Below, piece by piece: positions 19,677-31,429 of a DNA stretch of 32,000 nt (its first letter is position 1; every line of letters begins with the position of its first letter). The translations under genes were made by a program, and so were the position numbers. The stretch covers positions 690,001-722,000 of the forward strand of contig CP012986.1 in assembly GCA_001761425.1 (NCBI GenBank). The letters are read 5' to 3'. Below the pieces are notes generated by a model. It ran no database searches, was not told the DNA's origin, and saw nothing but the letters and a program-made list of their open reading frames with translations. This DNA is from Candidatus Saccharimonadota bacterium. Its GTDB lineage: Archaea; Nanohalarchaeota; Nanosalinia; Nanosalinales; Nanosalinaceae.

Positions 19677-20618
19677 TCAGAGTTGGTTGAGTAGGGATTC
19701 TATTCTATTTGTTATTCTTTTTTCAGTGTCTTCTTTGTCACTGAAGATTACCAGTAGTCTGGTCATCTGAAGTAGTTCGTATAGTTTTTCCGTGATTTCG
19801 TCATAATTGATGTTTCTGCTTTCTCTGTAGCCTTTTCTGAAAGCTTTCTGATATTTTTCGTCTTCATTGAGCCAGAAAATTCTGATCTCGCTGATTACTA
19901 AATCCAAGAAGGGATCGCCAGCAGCTGCTGTCTCCCAGTCCAGGACAGCAATATCATTTTCCTGGAAGAGAGTATTCCTCAAGTCAAATTCCATGTGGAG
20001 CAGAGTTGAGTCCTTTCTTTCATCCAGTAAATCTGAATATTTATCGAAGCTTTTCTCTGCCTTAACCGCAGTTTCATCGTAGCCGTTTTCTCTTAGTCTT
20101 TTCATCCACCATTCCTGAAGACTCTTCACTCCTTCAGACCAGGTATTATCAGAGATACTAATACCGTTCTCAGGTTGTATCAAACCAGAACGATTGAATG
20201 AATGCGAGTTGTGTACGCCTCCAAGTGTTTTACCCATTCTACGGGAAAGAGTAATCTTTTCCTGTTCCTCCAGATTATGAAAGTTTCTTCCGCCAGAGTA
20301 TCTGTTCAGATTTTCTCCATCCAGGTATTCCATTATACGGAAATATCTTCCTTCTATCTCACCTTCACTAATTATTTCTGGAGTATGAACATCAGATTCC
20401 TCTAAAAGCTTGAGTATCTCTGTTTCCCTATACATCTCTTCCTGCCATCCCGAAGTCCAGTCCTCATTCTTCTCCAGCTTAACAACATACTTCTCATCTA
20501 TGATAAACGTGTGATTTGCATCCCCTACCGATGAAGAAACTAAATCTATATCGTTCTCATTTAGTCTCTGCTCCACCAGTTCCTGAACCAAGTTCGCTAC
20601 CTCACCTGAATCGGACAT
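19677..20618 (-). CDS. APH/choline-kinase-type phosphotransferase paralogue (catalytic loop HxE instead of HxD)
   Basis: LLHMEFDLRNTLF aligns to HxDxxxxN with Glu at the Asp position. VLDWETAAAGDPFLDL is the DWE/DFG-equivalent motif. The N-lobe has VVKLEK (Lys). Confidence 0.7.
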   Translation of the reverse strand: MSDSGEVANLVQELVEQRLNENDIDLVSSSVGDANHTFIIDEKYVVKLEKNEDWTSGWQEEMYRETEILKLLEESDVHTPEIISEGEIEGRYFRIMEYLDGENLNRYSGGRNFHNLEEQEKITLSRRMGKTLGGVHNSHSFNRSGLIQPENGISISDNTWSEGVKSLQEWWMKRLRENGYDETAVKAEKSFDKYSDLLDERKDSTLLHMEFDLRNTLFQENDIAVLDWETAAAGDPFLDLVISEIRIFWLNEDEKYQKAFRKGYRESRNINYDEITEKLYELLQMTRLLVIFSDKEDTEKRITNRIESLLNQL

Positions 20619-26309: not shown

Positions 26310-26506
26310 GTGTCCTGGAAGATCTTGTAGAAACGTTCAGGCAGAGGCCCTGGAGAACTGTTTTTACGATACTCCTGATAATTTTCTGGATAGCTGTACC
26401 GCTTATATCCCAGTTATACTTCGACATGTCGGCGGTAAAGATCTCCTTTACAGTGACAGTGCTTTACTACGCTGGATGGAAACTCTACGAACTACAGACA
26501 GGTTAA
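26306..26506 (+). CDS. small two-TM membrane protein, coupled to the coiled-coil gene
   Basis: 66 aa with an ATGA overlap to the upstream stop. Contains WRTVFTILLIIFWIAVPLI and ISFTVTVLYYAGW. Confidence 0.45.
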   Translation: MSVLEDLVETFRQRPWRTVFTILLIIFWIAVPLISQLYFDMSAVKISFTVTVLYYAGWKLYELQTG

Positions 26507-27159
26507 TCCTCTTCATCTTCAAGTTTACTGTAGACCCTGTAACTGTAGACAGTTCCTGCAACCGAAAGAACGACCGCAGGCCCGACAACAAACTCCAGAA
26601 GCATACCCGGGAATACAAGGCCTCCCAGTGAGAAAAAACCTGCGAACTTGAACCACGGAGCCAGTTTACTGTGTGTCCTGTCCCATACCTCATCTTTACT
26701 TAAAGTCCACGGCGTTCTCAGGCCTATGAACCAGTTTCTCTCTGCTTTCTCGAATACAAGGCCTATGACGTAGAAGATCCCTGCTACAGCAGGTACGACA
26801 GCTCTCGAGATATCGAAAGCCGATCCAGTATTCCACAGCACAATCAAGGCCTGTATATACGTGATGAAAGCGATTATCGCCACTGACAGCCATTCAAAAA
26901 CAGGTTTGAAGTTCTCTATATTATCTTTCAACGGATCTACCGCGGGAAGAATCTTGAACAGCGATAGAACAGCGATAGAGACCAGAGGTAAAACTGCAAG
27001 GCCTGGAAGCTTCTCCATAGTCCTGTCAGGCTGGTTCGACGAGTCGAAATGCGTCGCGACGTCGCCTTCCACCTGTAAGTATCCGTGAAGGGAAACTCCC
27101 AGCATCAGCACTAAGAGGCCTATCGATGCATAATCAGATTTTTCCAGGTTCACAGACAC
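26503..27159 (-). CDS. DUF1648 / SdpI-family membrane protein
   Basis: DVATHFDSSNQPDRTMEK (DUF1648: .P.Hf...G.pDr) and NWFIGLRTPWTLSKDEVWDRTH (SdpI: N...GiRtpWTL.s.evW..TH). GTG start. Its stop overlaps the convergent gene's stop within TTAA (26503-26506). Confidence 0.7.
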   Translation of the reverse strand: MSVNLEKSDYASIGLLVLMLGVSLHGYLQVEGDVATHFDSSNQPDRTMEKLPGLAVLPLVSIAVLSLFKILPAVDPLKDNIENFKPVFEWLSVAIIAFITYIQALIVLWNTGSAFDISRAVVPAVAGIFYVIGLVFEKAERNWFIGLRTPWTLSKDEVWDRTHSKLAPWFKFAGFFSLGGLVFPGMLLEFVVGPAVVLSVAGTVYSYRVYSKLEDEED

Positions 27160-27220
27160 AAATTCGATTTTCTGCTATTATACCTTTCCTTTTTTCTGAA
27201 GGCCTTCAGATCCGGGAAAG

Positions 27221-27781
27221 ATGATTTATAGCAAAAGTTCAAAAACAGGTCTTATGCCCGGTAAAATGTTTATAGAAGGAGAAGACGTAAACCTACGGAC
27301 TATCGAAGAGGAAGATGCACAGTTCCTGAGAAACGGTGTGAACCATCCCGAAGTCCGCATCCATATGGGAAACAGAAGGCCTCAGAACCTTGAAAACGAA
27401 AAAGACTTTATCGAAAACGCGGTACAGGACGAAGACGATGTAAACCTGCTTATCTGTAAAGAAGACGAAGCCATGGGCATCATATCACTGAAACAGAAAG
27501 ACAAGGCCTCAAAACTAGGAGAGATCGGTATCTGGCTCCACCCTGACTACCACGGGAACGGCTACGGAACCGAGGCCTCAAAACTAGTCGTAGAGCACGG
27601 CTTCGAACAGTTGAACTATCACAAACTTTACGCCCGTGCTCACAGCGACAATGAGGCCTCAAAAAGCATCTGGAGGAAACACGGTTTCCAGAAGGAAGGA
27701 GAATTTAAAGACCACGTGTATACTGAAGGAGAGTACAGAGACGTAGTCTATTACGGCCTACTGGAGGAGGACAGATTATGA
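27221..27781 (+). CDS. GNAT N-acetyltransferase, RimJ/RimL (Acetyltransf_3) type
   Basis: VNLRTIEEEDAQFL, GEIGIWLHPDYHGNGYGTEASKLVVEHGFEQLNYHKLYARAHSDNEASKSIWRKHGFQKEGEFKDHVY...RDVVYYGLL. Confidence 0.8.
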   Translation: MIYSKSSKTGLMPGKMFIEGEDVNLRTIEEEDAQFLRNGVNHPEVRIHMGNRRPQNLENEKDFIENAVQDEDDVNLLICKEDEAMGIISLKQKDKASKLGEIGIWLHPDYHGNGYGTEASKLVVEHGFEQLNYHKLYARAHSDNEASKSIWRKHGFQKEGEFKDHVYTEGEYRDVVYYGLLEEDRL

Positions 27782-28311
27782 AACAGACAAAATTCCTTGA
27801 AAAAGAAGACGTCGTCCTGAGGCCTGTAGAAAAGGATGACGCAGAATTTCTTCAGGAAACAGTGCTTGAACCCGAAGTTAGGAACACAATTGGGCGTGCT
27901 CCAAAGCCGACAAGCATCGAGGAACAGAAAGACTGGATAGAGAAAAACAGGAAAGACGATGACCTGGCACAGTTCCTCATAGAGTACAAAGGAGAAAAAG
28001 CCGGTAACATGACACTTCACGGACTTGAAACTGATTACAGGAGAGGAGAATTCGGCATATCCATATATCCGGACTTCCAGGGCAAAGGAATAGGTACTAA
28101 ATCAGTAAAACTGATAGTAAAATATGCCTTCGAAACACTGAACCTCCACAAAGTAAAAGGAGGCTATCTGGAACACAACTCGGCATCAAAAAGAGTCATG
28201 GAAAAAGCAGGATTCAGGGAAGAGGGAACTGGAAGAGACTTCAAATACGTCGACGGAGAATGGAAAGACGTTATCTGGATGAGCATCCTCGAGGACGAAT
28301 ACCATGAATGA
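27778..28311 (+). CDS. GNAT N-acetyltransferase, RimJ/RimL (Acetyltransf_3) type
   Basis: VVLRPVEKDDAEFL, GEFGISIYPDFQGKGIGTKSVKLIVKYAFETLNLHKVKGGYLEHNSASKRVMEKAGFREEG. ATGA overlap with the upstream gene. Confidence 0.8.
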   Translation: MKQTKFLEKEDVVLRPVEKDDAEFLQETVLEPEVRNTIGRAPKPTSIEEQKDWIEKNRKDDDLAQFLIEYKGEKAGNMTLHGLETDYRRGEFGISIYPDFQGKGIGTKSVKLIVKYAFETLNLHKVKGGYLEHNSASKRVMEKAGFREEGTGRDFKYVDGEWKDVIWMSILEDEYHE

Positions 28312-29350
28312 AGAACCTGTTCTCCCAGAAAAACTTGAAAAAGGAGACAAGGTAGCGGTAATCGCGGTCTCATCCGGGATAAAAAATCGGTTCCCGGCAG
28401 CTTTCGAAAAAGGCCTTGAAGTCCTCAGAGAAAGATTTGAACTGGAACCTGTGACATACCCCAGTGCTGAAAGAGATACCGAATACCTCAACCAGCATCC
28501 AGAGGAGAAAGCCGAGGAACTTATGGAAGCGTTCGAAGATCCGGAGATTAAAGGCGTCGTAGCTGTAACAGGCGGTGACGAGCAGCTCAGAGTCCTGAAA
28601 CACCTGGAACAGGAAAGACTGAAGCAGAACCCGACACGTTTCTACGGAATAAGCGACAACACCAATCTACACGTCTATCTTAACCAGTTAGGTCTTCAAA
28701 GCTTCTACGGAGGCCAGTTAGTCAGCGACCTGATGGCACAGGAAGAAATCGCAGACTACACCTTCAAGCACCTGGAGAAGGCCTTTTTCAGCGACTCACT
28801 GGGAAAGATCAGGGCCTCGGAAGAATTCAGTGACGATTTCGTTGATCTAACCAGGGATAAGATTGTCGATAACAGGGAAAAATTTGAGAACCCTGGCTGG
28901 GAGTTCTGGAACTTTGAAAACGAGGTCTCCGGCCGTCTTTTCGGTGGCTGCCTCGAGATAATCTACTGGATGCTTGCCTCGGGAAAGATAGATACAGATA
29001 AACTTGAGGGAAAGATTCTGGCACTTGAGGCATCGGAAGCTCCTTCAGAGACAGAGGTCAAGAGATGGCTGATGTGCATGGGTGAAAGAGGTTTCCTGCA
29101 GAAGTTCGAAGCCATCATCGTTGGAAGGCCTGTCAGAGAGCCTCTTCACGGCGAGGAAAAAACTTTGGAGGAAAAAGAAGAGTATCACAGCAGGTTCAAG
29201 GAAAGAATTAGGAAAGAAATCCATCGATACTGCCCGGATACCCCAGTGGTCTTCGATATGGATTTCGGGCATACAGATCCGAAGATTCCTCTTCAACTCG
29301 GCGGCAAAATCTGTTTAAGGCCTGAAAAAGAAGCTGTAGAATTCAGTTAG
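28304..29350 (+). CDS. S66 family serine peptidase (LD-carboxypeptidase / MccF-like)
   Basis: LEKGDKVAVIAVSSG, IKGVVAVTGGDEQLRVL, FYGISDNTNLH (nucleophile Ser context G.SD.T.L), and DMDFGHTDP (catalytic His context fGH). 8-nt overlap with the upstream gene. Confidence 0.8.
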   Translation: MNEEPVLPEKLEKGDKVAVIAVSSGIKNRFPAAFEKGLEVLRERFELEPVTYPSAERDTEYLNQHPEEKAEELMEAFEDPEIKGVVAVTGGDEQLRVLKHLEQERLKQNPTRFYGISDNTNLHVYLNQLGLQSFYGGQLVSDLMAQEEIADYTFKHLEKAFFSDSLGKIRASEEFSDDFVDLTRDKIVDNREKFENPGWEFWNFENEVSGRLFGGCLEIIYWMLASGKIDTDKLEGKILALEASEAPSETEVKRWLMCMGERGFLQKFEAIIVGRPVREPLHGEEKTLEEKEEYHSRFKERIRKEIHRYCPDTPVVFDMDFGHTDPKIPLQLGGKICLRPEKEAVEFS

Positions 29351-29830
29351 ATGAGAATCCGGCATGCCAACGTCGATGACGTAGAAAAGATACAGGACAT
29401 CGCCATGGAGACATGGCTCGATACATACAAAGACATAATCGACGAAAACACTATCAGAGAGATCGTAGAAAGCTGGTATGACAAAGAGGACCTTGTTCAA
29501 CAGGTAAAAGATCCTGTCTTCTTCGTAGCAGAAGATGATGAAGGCCTGACAGGCTATGTGCATGCTTCGGTGAGGAAAGAAAAATCTCACCTTCACAGAC
29601 TGTACGTAAGACCTGAAAGCCAGGGCAAAGGCAAAGGGGGAAAACTATACGATAGAGCAGAGCAGGAGATCACTGATTCTGGAGCTGAAAGGATAGAACT
29701 TGAAGTTATGGCAGAGAACAGTAAAGGCCTTGGTTTCTACAGATCCAGAGGTTTTACAGAGGACAAGGAAGAAACTGTGGTCCTGAACGGTAAGAAAATC
29801 GTCCAAAAAGTCCTTTTCAAGCCTCTCTAA
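29351..29830 (+). CDS. GNAT N-acetyltransferase (Acetyltransf_1 type)
   Basis: LHRLYVRPESQGKGKGGKLY (acetyl-CoA Q/RxxGxG/A motif) and GFYRSRGF. The ATG follows the upstream TAG immediately. Confidence 0.8.
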   Translation: MRIRHANVDDVEKIQDIAMETWLDTYKDIIDENTIREIVESWYDKEDLVQQVKDPVFFVAEDDEGLTGYVHASVRKEKSHLHRLYVRPESQGKGKGGKLYDRAEQEITDSGAERIELEVMAENSKGLGFYRSRGFTEDKEETVVLNGKKIVQKVLFKPL

Positions 29831-29974
29831 CACCTGGGCTTTCAGCCTCTCCTTTCATCAACGGGAGAAAAATGTTTTTGAAGAGATAATTGAAAAAGGC
29901 TTGATTTTTTCGGGTTTCCATAACTGTTTTGTACTGGCGAACAGGTTTTAAGCTTACAGTTCAAAATTTTTTCC

Positions 29975-30541
29975 ATGTCAGTTTTAGCTTATGTCGCGGG
30001 AGGTATAGTCGTTCTTGTCGCTCTGATAAGTATTTACTATTACAACAGGATGGTGAAGCTGGAAAACCGTGTGGACAATGCATGGGCGCAGATAGATGTC
30101 CAGCTTAAGAAACGTGCCGATTTAGTGCCTAATCTTATGGAGACGGTCGAGGGATACATGGAGCACGAAAGAGAAGTAATGGATCAGGTCTCAGAGTCCA
30201 GGGAGAAAATGATGAACGCACAGAGCCAGGAAGAGGAGGTCCAGGCTGGAAATGACATGGGAAAGGCTCTCAAATCACTGTTCGCCGTCGCAGAGGACTA
30301 CCCCGATCTGAAGGCGTCGCAGAATTTCTCCGAGCTTCAGCAGGAACTATCAAGTATTGAGAACAAGATTGCCTACGCACGCCAACACTACAATGACTCA
30401 GTCATGACATTTAACAACGCGATCGAGACCTTCCCGGCTGTTTTATTCGCCAACATCTTCGGCAAACAGGAGAAAGATCAGCTTGAGATCGAGACAGCAG
30501 ATAAAGAGCTTCCAGAAGTAGATTTCTCCAGCGATGAGTAA
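29975..30541 (+). CDS. lemA: LemA family protein
   Basis: N-terminal TM segment then YYYNRMVKLENRVDNAWAQIDVQLKKRADLVPNLMETV...YPDLKASQNF..LQ.EL...ENKIAYARQHYNDSV..FN, which is the canonical LemA sequence. Confidence 0.88.
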   Translation: MSVLAYVAGGIVVLVALISIYYYNRMVKLENRVDNAWAQIDVQLKKRADLVPNLMETVEGYMEHEREVMDQVSESREKMMNAQSQEEEVQAGNDMGKALKSLFAVAEDYPDLKASQNFSELQQELSSIENKIAYARQHYNDSVMTFNNAIETFPAVLFANIFGKQEKDQLEIETADKELPEVDFSSDE

Positions 30542-30559
30542 AGAGGAGGTGAAAGGCCT

Positions 30560-31429
30560 ATGATGCTGGAAGATCAGATTAAATGGAACCGGCGTAAAAG
30601 CTATGCATTACTCTTCATAGTTCCACTAATCCTTCTGGCGGTTATATTCGTCTTTGGAAGAGTTTTCGTACCGAGAATCAGCCCTTTCCTTATTCTCGCA
30701 GCTGGATCAGGTATATCAGTTCTGTACGTGCTTTTCTCCTATTTCAAGAGCGATGAAATGATACTTGAGGTTGTGGGCGCAAAAGAAGCTTCCGAACAGG
30801 AGTACAGCCAGCTTCATGATTTAATGGAAGGCCTTACTATCTCTTCCGGTATGTCCAAGCCTGATCTCTACATACAGGAAGATGACAGGATCAACGCGTT
30901 CGCAACCGGTAGAAAACCAGAGGACGGGAAAGTCTGTGTGACAACCGGTGCACTGGAGAAACTGGACGAAGACGAACTCGAAGGAGTCCTGGCCCACGAA
31001 CTCTCACACATCAAAAACCAGGATATCATGTTCATGACAGTCGCAGTCGCACTGATCGGAGTCATCAGCATCATCAGCGAACTACTGCTCCACAGCATGT
31101 TCTTCGGAGTAGACGATGATGCACCACCATGGGCAATGGCAGCAGGCCTTTTACTCGCAATCCTCGCACCTATATCAGCGAGAATGGTACAGCTTGCCAT
31201 GTCAAGAAAAAGAGAATACCTGGCCGATGCTTCAGGCGCACAGATGACACGCTACCCGGAAGGCCTCGCATCAGCACTGGAAAAAATCCAGAACCAGAAA
31301 AACCCGAAGATGGATGTGAACAAAGCCGTCTCGCACCTGTACTTCTCAAATCCCTTCAAAAACAAGGCCTCTTTCTTCTCAACGCATCCACCGCTGGAGG
31401 AAAGAGTTGAAAGACTCCGCAACATGTAA
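30560..31429 (+). CDS. htpX: M48 family zinc metalloprotease, HtpX-like
   Basis: Two N-terminal TM segments, INAFATG, HELSHIKNQD (HExxH), two further TM segments, and REYLADASGA (third ligand Glu region). Confidence 0.88.
   Translation: MMLEDQIKWNRRKSYALLFIVPLILLAVIFVFGRVFVPRISPFLILAAGSGISVLYVLFSYFKSDEMILEVVGAKEASEQEYSQLHDLMEGLTISSGMSKPDLYIQEDDRINAFATGRKPEDGKVCVTTGALEKLDEDELEGVLAHELSHIKNQDIMFMTVAVALIGVISIISELLLHSMFFGVDDDAPPWAMAAGLLLAILAPISARMVQLAMSRKREYLADASGAQMTRYPEGLASALEKIQNQKNPKMDVNKAVSHLYFSNPFKNKASFFSTHPPLEERVERLRNM

Follow-up and report, generated by a model that had tools for sequence, protein, structure and literature searches.

Two immunity chemistries are known for microcin C, acetylation by MccE and hydrolysis by the S66-family protein MccF (PMC8323819), and the mechanism by which MccE or RimL and MccF confer immunity has been documented (PMC8323819, PMC4010828). 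Stand-alone MccF homologues also confer resistance to microcin C (PMC8323819). MccF-like and GNAT enzymes that stand alone are widespread, few of their natural substrates have been established, and no archaeal S66 enzyme has been characterised. Here we describe a cassette of four genes, encoding three GNAT-family acetyltransferases (GNAT1, GNAT2 and GNAT3) and one S66-family serine hydrolase (hereafter S66), from a nanohaloarchaeal (DPANN) genome which consists of one contig of 1,118,574 bp (98.75% complete). The window is the whole stretch of 32,000 nucleotides of this contig that was analysed, and coordinates of the locus are given in whole-window numbering. An initial annotation of the window had proposed that the cassette guards against aminoacyl-nucleotide toxins of the microcin C type. 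The reading we prefer, tentatively and with somewhat less than even confidence, is that the locus is a genuine operon of accessory, lineage-specific enzymes in Nanohaloarchaeota, whose core is GNAT1-GNAT2 translationally coupled to a cytoplasmic S66 hydrolase of the MccF clade, and that this core would detoxify amine-bearing small molecules.

Gene structure and expression signals

All four open reading frames (ORFs) are co-directional on the + strand and lie where the initial annotation had placed them. GNAT1 (27221-27781; longest ORF 186 aa) and GNAT2 (27778-28311; 177 aa) are Acetyltransf_3 proteins (PF13302; 2.4e-28, 100 bits and 2.9e-26, 93 bits, respectively), S66 (28304-29350; 348 aa) matches Peptidase_S66 (1.5e-28) and S66C (8.8e-20), and GNAT3 (29351-29830; 159 aa) is an Acetyltransf_1 protein (1.3e-16). 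The three junctions claimed for the unit were likewise confirmed from the sequence, which establishes the gene structure: GNAT1 and GNAT2 share an ATGA overlap (27778-27781), GNAT2 and S66 overlap by 8 nt in ATGAATGA (28304-28311), and the TAG of S66 is followed at once by the ATG of GNAT3 (29348-29353). A Shine-Dalgarno (SD)-like GGAGGAGG is found upstream of GNAT2 and GAGGA upstream of S66. Since GNAT1 orthologues start at MPG(T/K)(V/M)F, which matches M12 of the window ORF, the true GNAT1 start is probably this codon at 27254, giving a protein of 175 aa. The probable promoter region of the operon (27160..27253, + strand), as judged from the sequence, contains TATA-like ATTATA at 27177 and TTTATA at 27225, and the position of the latter 29 nt ahead of the ATG at 27254 suggests that the operon mRNA may be leaderless. 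Inside the 2.6-kb unit there is only one T5 run, at 28784, and the T5-T6 cluster lies past GNAT3, where three such runs make up a probable archaeal oligo-T terminator zone (29875..29972, + strand) within the 144-nt gap before LemA; this zone probably ends the unit. The overlapping junctions, the SD-like motifs, the one upstream TATA-like region and the location of the T-run cluster only downstream thus support the reading of the locus as an operon.

Recurrence of the gene order in Nanohaloarchaeota

The homologue surveys covered 61 related genomes, 29 of them high-quality. S66 was found in 17 of the 61 (12 of the 29 high-quality genomes) and GNAT1 homologues in 27 (18 of the 29). The sources of the S66 homologues, which include Candidatus Nanohalobium, Nanosalina, Nanosalinarum, Nanohalovita and unclassified Nanohaloarchaea, bear out the earlier remark that the window looks archaeal. 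The order GNAT1-GNAT2-S66, or a single GNAT followed by S66, occurs in 9 of ~20 distinct nanohaloarchaeal genomes or metagenome-assembled genomes (MAGs), with S66 identities to the window protein ranging from 47% to 75% across the genomes that bear it; a same-genus genome carries the full arrangement, SdpI next to GNAT1-GNAT2-S66-GNAT3-LemA-HtpX, and in seven further genomes or MAGs with GNAT(-GNAT)-S66 the S66 protein is 47-69% identical to that of the window. Among the 8 searched genomes that hold both GNAT and S66, the two are adjacent in 6. The linkage is conserved beyond the genome of the window. Moreover, both S66 sub-clades preserve, down to the nucleotides, the block that joins the GNAT2 stop to the S66 start (tggatgagcat..gaggaYgaataY ATG). 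This suggests that the two reading frames became fused once, in an ancestor, and argues that they may be expressed in a coupled manner.

The four-gene order claimed initially therefore recurs in other archaea as regards its GNAT1-GNAT2-S66 core, while its links to GNAT3 and SdpI are seen at S66 loci of the same genus only. In one other genus GNAT3 comes after a GNAT pair without S66, and there the homologue after GNAT1-GNAT2 is split over two frames by an apparent frameshift (L117:4824-5313). The GNAT pair is found more often than S66, and in many cases without it. On the other hand, S66 stands alone between SUI1 and Rpp29 in Nanosalina VS9-1, Nanohalovita and one further MAG, and between aIF6 and prefoldin in another genome (L003). 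A Nanosalinarum-type genome (G013; L007, L018, L021, L040) has S66 in tandem, as two full copies with an adjoining fragment, and a fourth, divergent copy (41% identity) elsewhere. What holds firmly together is GNAT1-GNAT2, to which S66 is often closely fused as a third member; the four-gene cassette is one state of a variable accessory islet, and the linkage of GNAT3 and SdpI is mostly genus-specific. The patchy distribution and the tandem multiplication of S66 both speak for an accessory character, and an accessory rather than a core enzyme set is the most economical reading.

Some public records met in these surveys deserve mention. The nanohaloarchaeal S66 gene of B1-Br10_U2g29 (L037:4001-5038) has an in-frame stop at about codon 40, and is either a pseudogene or a sequencing error. 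An 8.6-kb contig titled 'MAG: Colwellia polaris' (L063) carries nanohaloarchaeal LemA, HtpX, GNAT1, GNAT2, S66 and APH genes whose products are 47-79% identical to the proteins of the window; the public record was probably misbinned. The plasmid pFRL6 of Streptomyces sp. F12 (L114) encodes an S66 protein of LdcA size flanked by a B12-binding radical SAM protein and an 'amino acid--tRNA ligase-related protein', a context that resembles aminoacyl-nucleotide natural-product clusters.

The S66 protein belongs to the MccF clade

In phmmer searches against solved structures the best match of S66 was Bacillus anthracis BA3275 (5.7e-46, 160 bits), followed by the MccF-like protein of Streptococcus pneumoniae (5.5e-31), B. 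anthracis MccF BA5613 (1.3e-20, 77 bits) and E. coli MccF (~1e-14, 58 bits), and LdcA gave a partial match only. The LdcA equivalog of NCBIfam (PRK11253) scored S66 at 53.6 bits, far short of its cut-off of 378. An AlphaFold (AF2) model of S66 was built from 31 homologues (predicted local distance difference test, pLDDT, 93) and compared with the PDB by Foldseek. It gave template modelling (TM) scores of 0.89-0.90 to BA3275 (root-mean-square deviation about 2 A), including the entry 5f5x, 'S116A Ba3275 with AMP bound', of 0.83-0.85 to the pneumococcal MccF-like protein and of 0.83 and about 0.81 to the MccF proteins of E. coli and B. anthracis, respectively, as against 0.62-0.71 to LdcA structures. 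In a maximum-likelihood tree, with references from the E. coli mcc plasmid, K-12 ldcA, pAgK84 agnC5 and others, the halophilic-archaeal sequences formed one clade (97/98) which was sister to BA3275/Lactococcus (96/94) and separate from E. coli MccF/AgnC5, and LdcA was placed far off on a very long branch. MccF, BA3275 and the window protein share a loop of ~30 residues (residues ~172-205 of the window S66), where the alignment shows a gap in E. coli LdcA. S66 is therefore a member of the MccF clade, in the part made up of BA3275 and the haloarchaeal sub-clade. The equivalog score, the TM-scores, the tree and the loop together rule out LdcA, and the firm placement among LdcA enzymes that the initial annotation had named as refuting its proposal did not occur. 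Within the tree the nanohaloarchaeal sequences fall into two clades, and two independent origins through host-to-symbiont transfer were considered; the approximately unbiased (AU) test does not reject monophyly (p = 0.176) and this claim was dropped. Since its N-terminal sequence shows no apparent signal peptide, S66 is probably cytoplasmic.

The catalytic residues S117, E242 and H323 align with S118, E243 and H311 of E. coli MccF. The residues around S117 (FYGISDNT) and around H323 (DFGHTDP), of which GISDNT and FGH had been pointed out before, are intact, and E242 adds the third residue of the triad, which is invariant in 171 homologues (115 nanohaloarchaeal-type and 56 haloarchaeal). Fold, triad and clade placement are thus established, and it is at the aligned specificity positions that the protein departs from MccF. 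E. coli MccF W186 stacks on the adenine of the substrate, according to the legend of Fig. 7 in PMC8323819. At this position, where the loop alignment is somewhat uncertain, the window S66 has Leu182; Leu or Ile is found in 74 of the 115 nanohaloarchaeal-type homologues, and Trp in 51 of the 56 haloarchaeal ones as well as in BA3275 and AgnC5. As aligned, the sub-clade of the window S66 has departed from a Trp that is kept by the wider archaeal family. Two further MccF residues, N220 and K247, which according to its title were mutated as active-site residues in PDB entry 3tly, correspond to Glu218 and Glu245, and R246 falls in a gap in the window S66 and is Glu in its relatives. The non-halophilic BA3275 is also acidic at the positions aligned to N220 and K247. 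We take N220 and K247 to form the pocket for the acidic aminoacyl side chain. Judged by these aligned residues, S66 is an MccF-clade hydrolase without two defining features of the microcin C-specific enzymes, the Trp and the N220/K247 pair, and its pocket would favour a substrate that differs from processed microcin C in being neutral or cationic instead of Asp/Glu and in being bound without Trp-adenine stacking.

The acetyltransferases resemble SpeG and PaiA

GNAT1 and GNAT2 are paralogues, 39% identical to each other. The top PDB matches of GNAT1 were SpeG entries (2e-21), with RimL at 1e-9 and MccE at 8e-6; those of GNAT2 were SpeG (4e-20), YdaF (1.4e-19), RimJ (4e-14) and RimL (6e-4), and MccE was absent among the GNAT2 matches in the PDB. 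Direct comparison gave 80 bits for GNAT1 and 87 bits for GNAT2 against E. coli SpeG, 56 and 32 bits against E. coli RimL, and 47 and 31 bits against MccE's C-terminal domain. By these scores both proteins are nearer to SpeG than to RimL or MccE. Their description in the initial annotation as RimJ/RimL-type is right at the level of the Pfam family and fails beyond it, as the nearest relative is SpeG and two of the residues aligned below are gone. MccE W453 is replaced by Arg in GNAT1 and Lys in GNAT2, and E572 by Val and Lys; F466 is kept as Phe/Trp and S553 as Ser, and RimL retains W453, S553 and E572. We take W453 and F466, alongside S553 and E572, to be the residues that sandwich the adenine; the identities of the four were checked on the MccE sequence. 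Also, GNAT1 and GNAT2 share with SpeG a 3-residue deletion relative to RimL and MccE, the WPxFV insertion being absent. The SpeG equivalog of NCBIfam (PRK15130) is still the top match of GNAT1 and GNAT2, their scores being 77.4 and 80.7 bits and its cut-off 218. In the case of GNAT3 the PaiA equivalogs gave 52 bits against cut-offs of 225 and 250, and the nearest solved relative is a PaiA-type enzyme of Thermoplasma (3k9u, 4e-14).

The SUI1-Rpp29 islet and possible modification of the translation apparatus

What lies between aSUI1 and Rpp29/S17 in the archaeal ribosomal-protein superoperon varies among Nanohaloarchaeota (L022, L023, L024, L041, L044, L116, L117, L119, L122). The gap may be filled by a solitary S66, by the GNAT pair, by APH-like kinases, by methyltransferases, by a phosphodiesterase, by a gene of the metallo-beta-lactamase fold or by MazE-PIN, depending on the genome, and in one genome the SUI1-S17 gap contains APH (- strand), GNAT, GNAT, S66, methyltransferase, phosphodiesterase and MazE-PIN. 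The S66-less GNAT pair is found between SUI1 and Rpp29 with an RsmC-like MTS methyltransferase and a gene of the APH/fructosamine-kinase-like kind as neighbours, and in other cases beside two APH genes and a metallo-beta-lactamase-fold gene, beside the frameshifted GNAT3, a phosphodiesterase and a methyltransferase, or directly 3' of LemA-HtpX. A site with such mixed content looks more like a hot spot for insertions than like a functional operon. In the genome of the window itself the gap (C1:52839-53666) is occupied by nothing but an acidic ORF of 159 aa on the opposite strand, and a clear match to Rpp29 was not found.

The alternative that survives best is drawn from this setting. GNAT1 and GNAT2 might acetylate the N-termini of ribosomal proteins or translation factors in the manner of RimJ and RimL, and S66 would be an independent housekeeping hydrolase that happens to reside in highly expressed translation operons. 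The location of the GNAT pair between SUI1 and Rpp29 in several genomes, in one of them next to the RsmC-like methyltransferase, fits this view, as do the second-tier matches of the GNATs to RimL, RimJ and YdaF; the solitary S66 genes between SUI1 and Rpp29 and between aIF6 and prefoldin, and the many GNAT pairs without S66, speak for the independence of the hydrolase. However, presence of GNAT1 in 18 of 29 high-quality genomes would be odd for a core modification of the ribosome, the islet is shared with APH kinases, a phosphodiesterase and a toxin-antitoxin pair, and the GNATs are without the RimL residues equivalent to W453 and E572. The nucleotide-conserved overlap of GNAT2 and S66 furthermore argues for coupled expression of the two and so against an independent S66. 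We consider this alternative unlikely, but one that deserves serious weight.

Polyamines and microcin C as possible substrates

Handling of polyamines or other basic amines was considered next to it. GNAT1 to GNAT3 would acetylate spermidine, spermine or related amines coming from the host, and S66, with its acidic pocket, would hydrolyse a cationic acyl-amine conjugate. The best characterised relatives of all three GNATs are indeed polyamine acetyltransferases (SpeG for GNAT1 and GNAT2, PaiA for GNAT3), the top NCBIfam matches agree, the SpeG-type deletion is shared and Glu218 and Glu245 occupy the aligned specificity positions of S66. Against this, the scores are far under the equivalog cut-offs for SpeG and PaiA alike, and acidic residues at the same S66 positions occur in the non-halophilic BA3275 too. 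To our knowledge, moreover, no S66 enzyme acts on polyamine conjugates. Taken together, we regard this explanation as improbable.

Strict microcin C immunity, in which the GNATs would acetylate the alpha-amine of the processed toxin and S66 would cleave the aminoacyl-nucleotide amide of Asp- or Glu-adenylate mimics, is the reading nearest to that of the initial annotation. It draws on the position of S66 in the MccF structural clade, with a nearest solved relative crystallised with AMP, on PF13302 being the family of RimL and MccE, and on the neighbourhood of MccE and MccF in the E. coli mcc locus. The aligned residues tell otherwise. Leu182 replaces W186, Glu218 and Glu245 reverse the charge of the N220/K247 pocket in a way that would disfavour Asp/Glu substrates, the GNATs lack W453 and E572 and score higher against SpeG than against RimL and MccE, and no ThiF/MccB gene is present in the neighbourhood. 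Since other residues stand where MccF recognises adenine and the acidic side chain, and since neither GNAT1 nor GNAT2 is MccE- or RimL-like, the case for a microcin C-type substrate is weakened, and we rate the strict form of it as quite improbable.

Packing, base composition and flanking genes

Packing was assessed by a crude gene call over the 1.12-Mb genome, according to which ~21% of same-strand neighbour pairs have a gap of <=0 and 7 gap-free runs of at least four genes exist, about the number that independence predicts. Tight packing is therefore common in this genome and the overlaps alone are within chance; we rejected them as proof, by themselves, of coupling, their frequency in this compact genome being equal to expectation. 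What stands above chance is the GNAT1-GNAT2-S66 order in other genera and the nucleotide-conserved GNAT2/S66 junction. Mere juxtaposition of unrelated genes by genome compaction, with the overlaps as a mark of streamlining, would accord with these packing figures, with the mostly genus-specific adjacency of GNAT3 and SdpI and with the largely independent phyletic patterns of GNAT and S66, but for GNAT2 and S66 the conserved junction contradicts it, as does GNAT(-GNAT)-S66 in 9 genomes across both S66 sub-clades (adjacent in 6/8), and it is the least probable of the explanations considered. The GC content of the cassette (46.1%, genome 46.4%) and its density of the AGGCCT signature (4.2 per kb, genome 4.0 per kb) are native, and a recent horizontal gain of the cassette was rejected on this ground in favour of long residence.

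Upstream of the cassette lies a divergent gene for an SdpI/DUF1648 membrane protein (26503-27159, - strand; SdpI 2e-12), whose SdpI domain scores 47.5 bits against a cut-off of 28.2 and which is adjacent only in same-genus loci (L002, L033). PADLOC gave a marginal 2TM effector match for this neighbour (E 0.0077). Downstream is a pair of genes for LemA and an M48/HtpX protease (29975-31429, + strand; Pfam). LemA-HtpX (M48) recurs next to the GNAT pair, in three genera or more (L063, L118, L033 and the window), lying upstream of GNAT1-GNAT2 in two of them (L063, L118) and downstream in the window. The SdpI and LemA-HtpX genes are regarded as context only. Two genes of the APH family (aminoglycoside/fructosamine-kinase-like) are present in the window (19677-20618 and 14-625, both on the - strand) at a distance from the cassette, the first of them in a low-signature stretch after tRNA-Thr; the APH and methyltransferase partners seen in other genomes are not adjacent to the cassette here.

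Discussion

We return to the preferred reading, a lineage-specific operon whose products would detoxify amine-bearing small molecules. In such a scheme the GNATs would carry out acetyl-CoA-dependent N-acetylation of a primary amine on the target molecule, and the Ser117-His323-Glu242 triad of S66 would hydrolyse the acyl-amide bond of the same class of molecule, so that an imported toxic metabolite would be detoxified or inactivated by two routes. In the genus of the window the PaiA-like GNAT3 would have been appended to the core, and elsewhere members of the islet would add phosphorylation or methylation, the set often being expressed with the translation apparatus. The leading candidate targets would be aminoacyl-nucleoside or aminoacyl-nucleotide inhibitors of translation, because S66 is of the MccF clade and AMP is bound by the nearest relative of solved structure. 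The adjacency of MccF and MccE in E. coli offers a parallel, and the APH-family kinases, methyltransferases and other islet genes found with the core in relatives, as well as its long residence, are counted in favour. We infer that the enzymes share a substrate and have a protective role; the latter is favoured because, on the most economical reading, the set is accessory, its members would each neutralise small molecules and it would often be expressed with the translation apparatus. On the sequence and model evidence at hand, detoxification would be a plausible role.

Several points weigh against it. The substitutions at W186 and N220/K247 in S66 and at W453 and E572 in the GNATs, the closer relation of GNAT1 and GNAT2 to SpeG, and the frequency of gene overlaps in this genome, all described above, belong here. 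Furthermore, the genomes with both genes (~9), with GNAT only (18) and with S66 only (8) amount to a weak correlation, and PADLOC defence models gave 0 matches to the four cassette proteins. A stand-alone chromosomal S66 with 38-48% identity and no adjacent GNAT1 or GNAT2 is present in ~60 haloarchaeal species, which fits a housekeeping role without need of a GNAT, and naive ORF clustering, in which the high-GC DNA gave mostly spurious ORFs, found no recurrent neighbour for it. A literature search returned no paper linking S66 or MccF to haloarchaea or nanohaloarchaea, and no substrate or function for BA3275 or any archaeal S66. Also, we know of no microcin-C-like producer from hypersaline archaea. 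The haloarchaeal family bears on a further argument of the initial annotation. Archaea are without murein, and the occurrence of an S66 enzyme in such an organism had been treated as a clue to the cassette; because ~60 haloarchaeal species carry a stand-alone S66, the puzzle is not specific to it.

A bolder extension of the detoxification reading would place a 'translation-guard' islet at the fixed aSUI1-Rpp29 site. In it, shuffled small-molecule-modifying enzymes (the GNAT pair, the MccF-like S66, APH-like kinases, S-adenosylmethionine (SAM)-dependent methyltransferases, the phosphodiesterase, the metallo-beta-lactamase-fold protein and a toxin-antitoxin pair) would be co-expressed with the ribosome and neutralise translation-targeting metabolites met on the haloarchaeal host. 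The window cassette would then be a relocated copy, and the change of Trp to Leu/Ile in its S66 sub-clade would reflect a new substrate. We offer this scheme as a speculation that is unlikely to hold.

Whichever reading prevails, a conserved, translationally coupled GNAT-GNAT-S66 operon in a 1.1 Mb genome and a large S66 family of haloarchaea in which the triad, loop and Trp of MccF are retained have been identified, and the two together offer a tractable route to the role of S66 in organisms without murein. If detoxification is true, it would speak of chemical warfare and self-protection in DPANN symbionts, with a resistance-like islet inside a ribosomal-protein operon. If it fails, the locus would represent, more ordinarily, acetyltransferases and a peptidase with housekeeping roles that genome reduction has brought close together.

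Comparison with known systems

Among known proteins, LdcA (E. coli 5z01, P. aeruginosa 1zrs) shares the peptidase family and the triad with the window S66 but is without its ~30-residue loop. SpeG and the Thermoplasma PaiA are the best-scoring characterised relatives of GNAT1 and GNAT2 and of GNAT3, respectively, at only 26-31% identity and with scores well under the equivalog cut-offs. The MccE C-terminal domain and RimL belong to PF13302 like GNAT1 and GNAT2, which keep the S553 and F466 positions; they differ in carrying W453, E572 and the 3-residue WPxFV insertion, which the window proteins do not have. E. coli MccF (PDB 3tla and others) and B. anthracis BA5613 have the S66 fold, the Ser-His-Glu triad and the substrate-covering loop in common with the window protein, at an identity of ~22-24% and with W186, N220 and K247 changed to Leu, Glu and Glu. 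In the E. coli mcc locus MccF adjoins the GNAT-bearing MccE just as the window S66 adjoins its GNATs; unlike the E. coli and B. anthracis proteins, the window locus has an archaeal host, and Pfam annotation of its neighbours shows no mcc biosynthetic genes, ThiF/MccB included. BA3275 (PDB 5f5x, 5f9m, 5f1y, 5jyb; 'member of MccF family') comes closest, being like the window S66 in its triad, its loop insertion and its acidic residues at the N220/K247-aligned positions, although identity is only 28% and BA3275 has a Trp at the W186-aligned position where the window has Leu182. In one Bacillus genome its orthologue has no GNAT neighbours, and the genes found beside it, for a Rap/TPR protein, DUF3224 and DUF1015, are uninformative. 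Compared with all these systems, what is new here is the pairing, in a symbiotic archaeon, of a stand-alone MccF-clade hydrolase with GNATs, its specificity residues being altered and its home, in relatives, being an unusual one in a ribosomal-protein operon.

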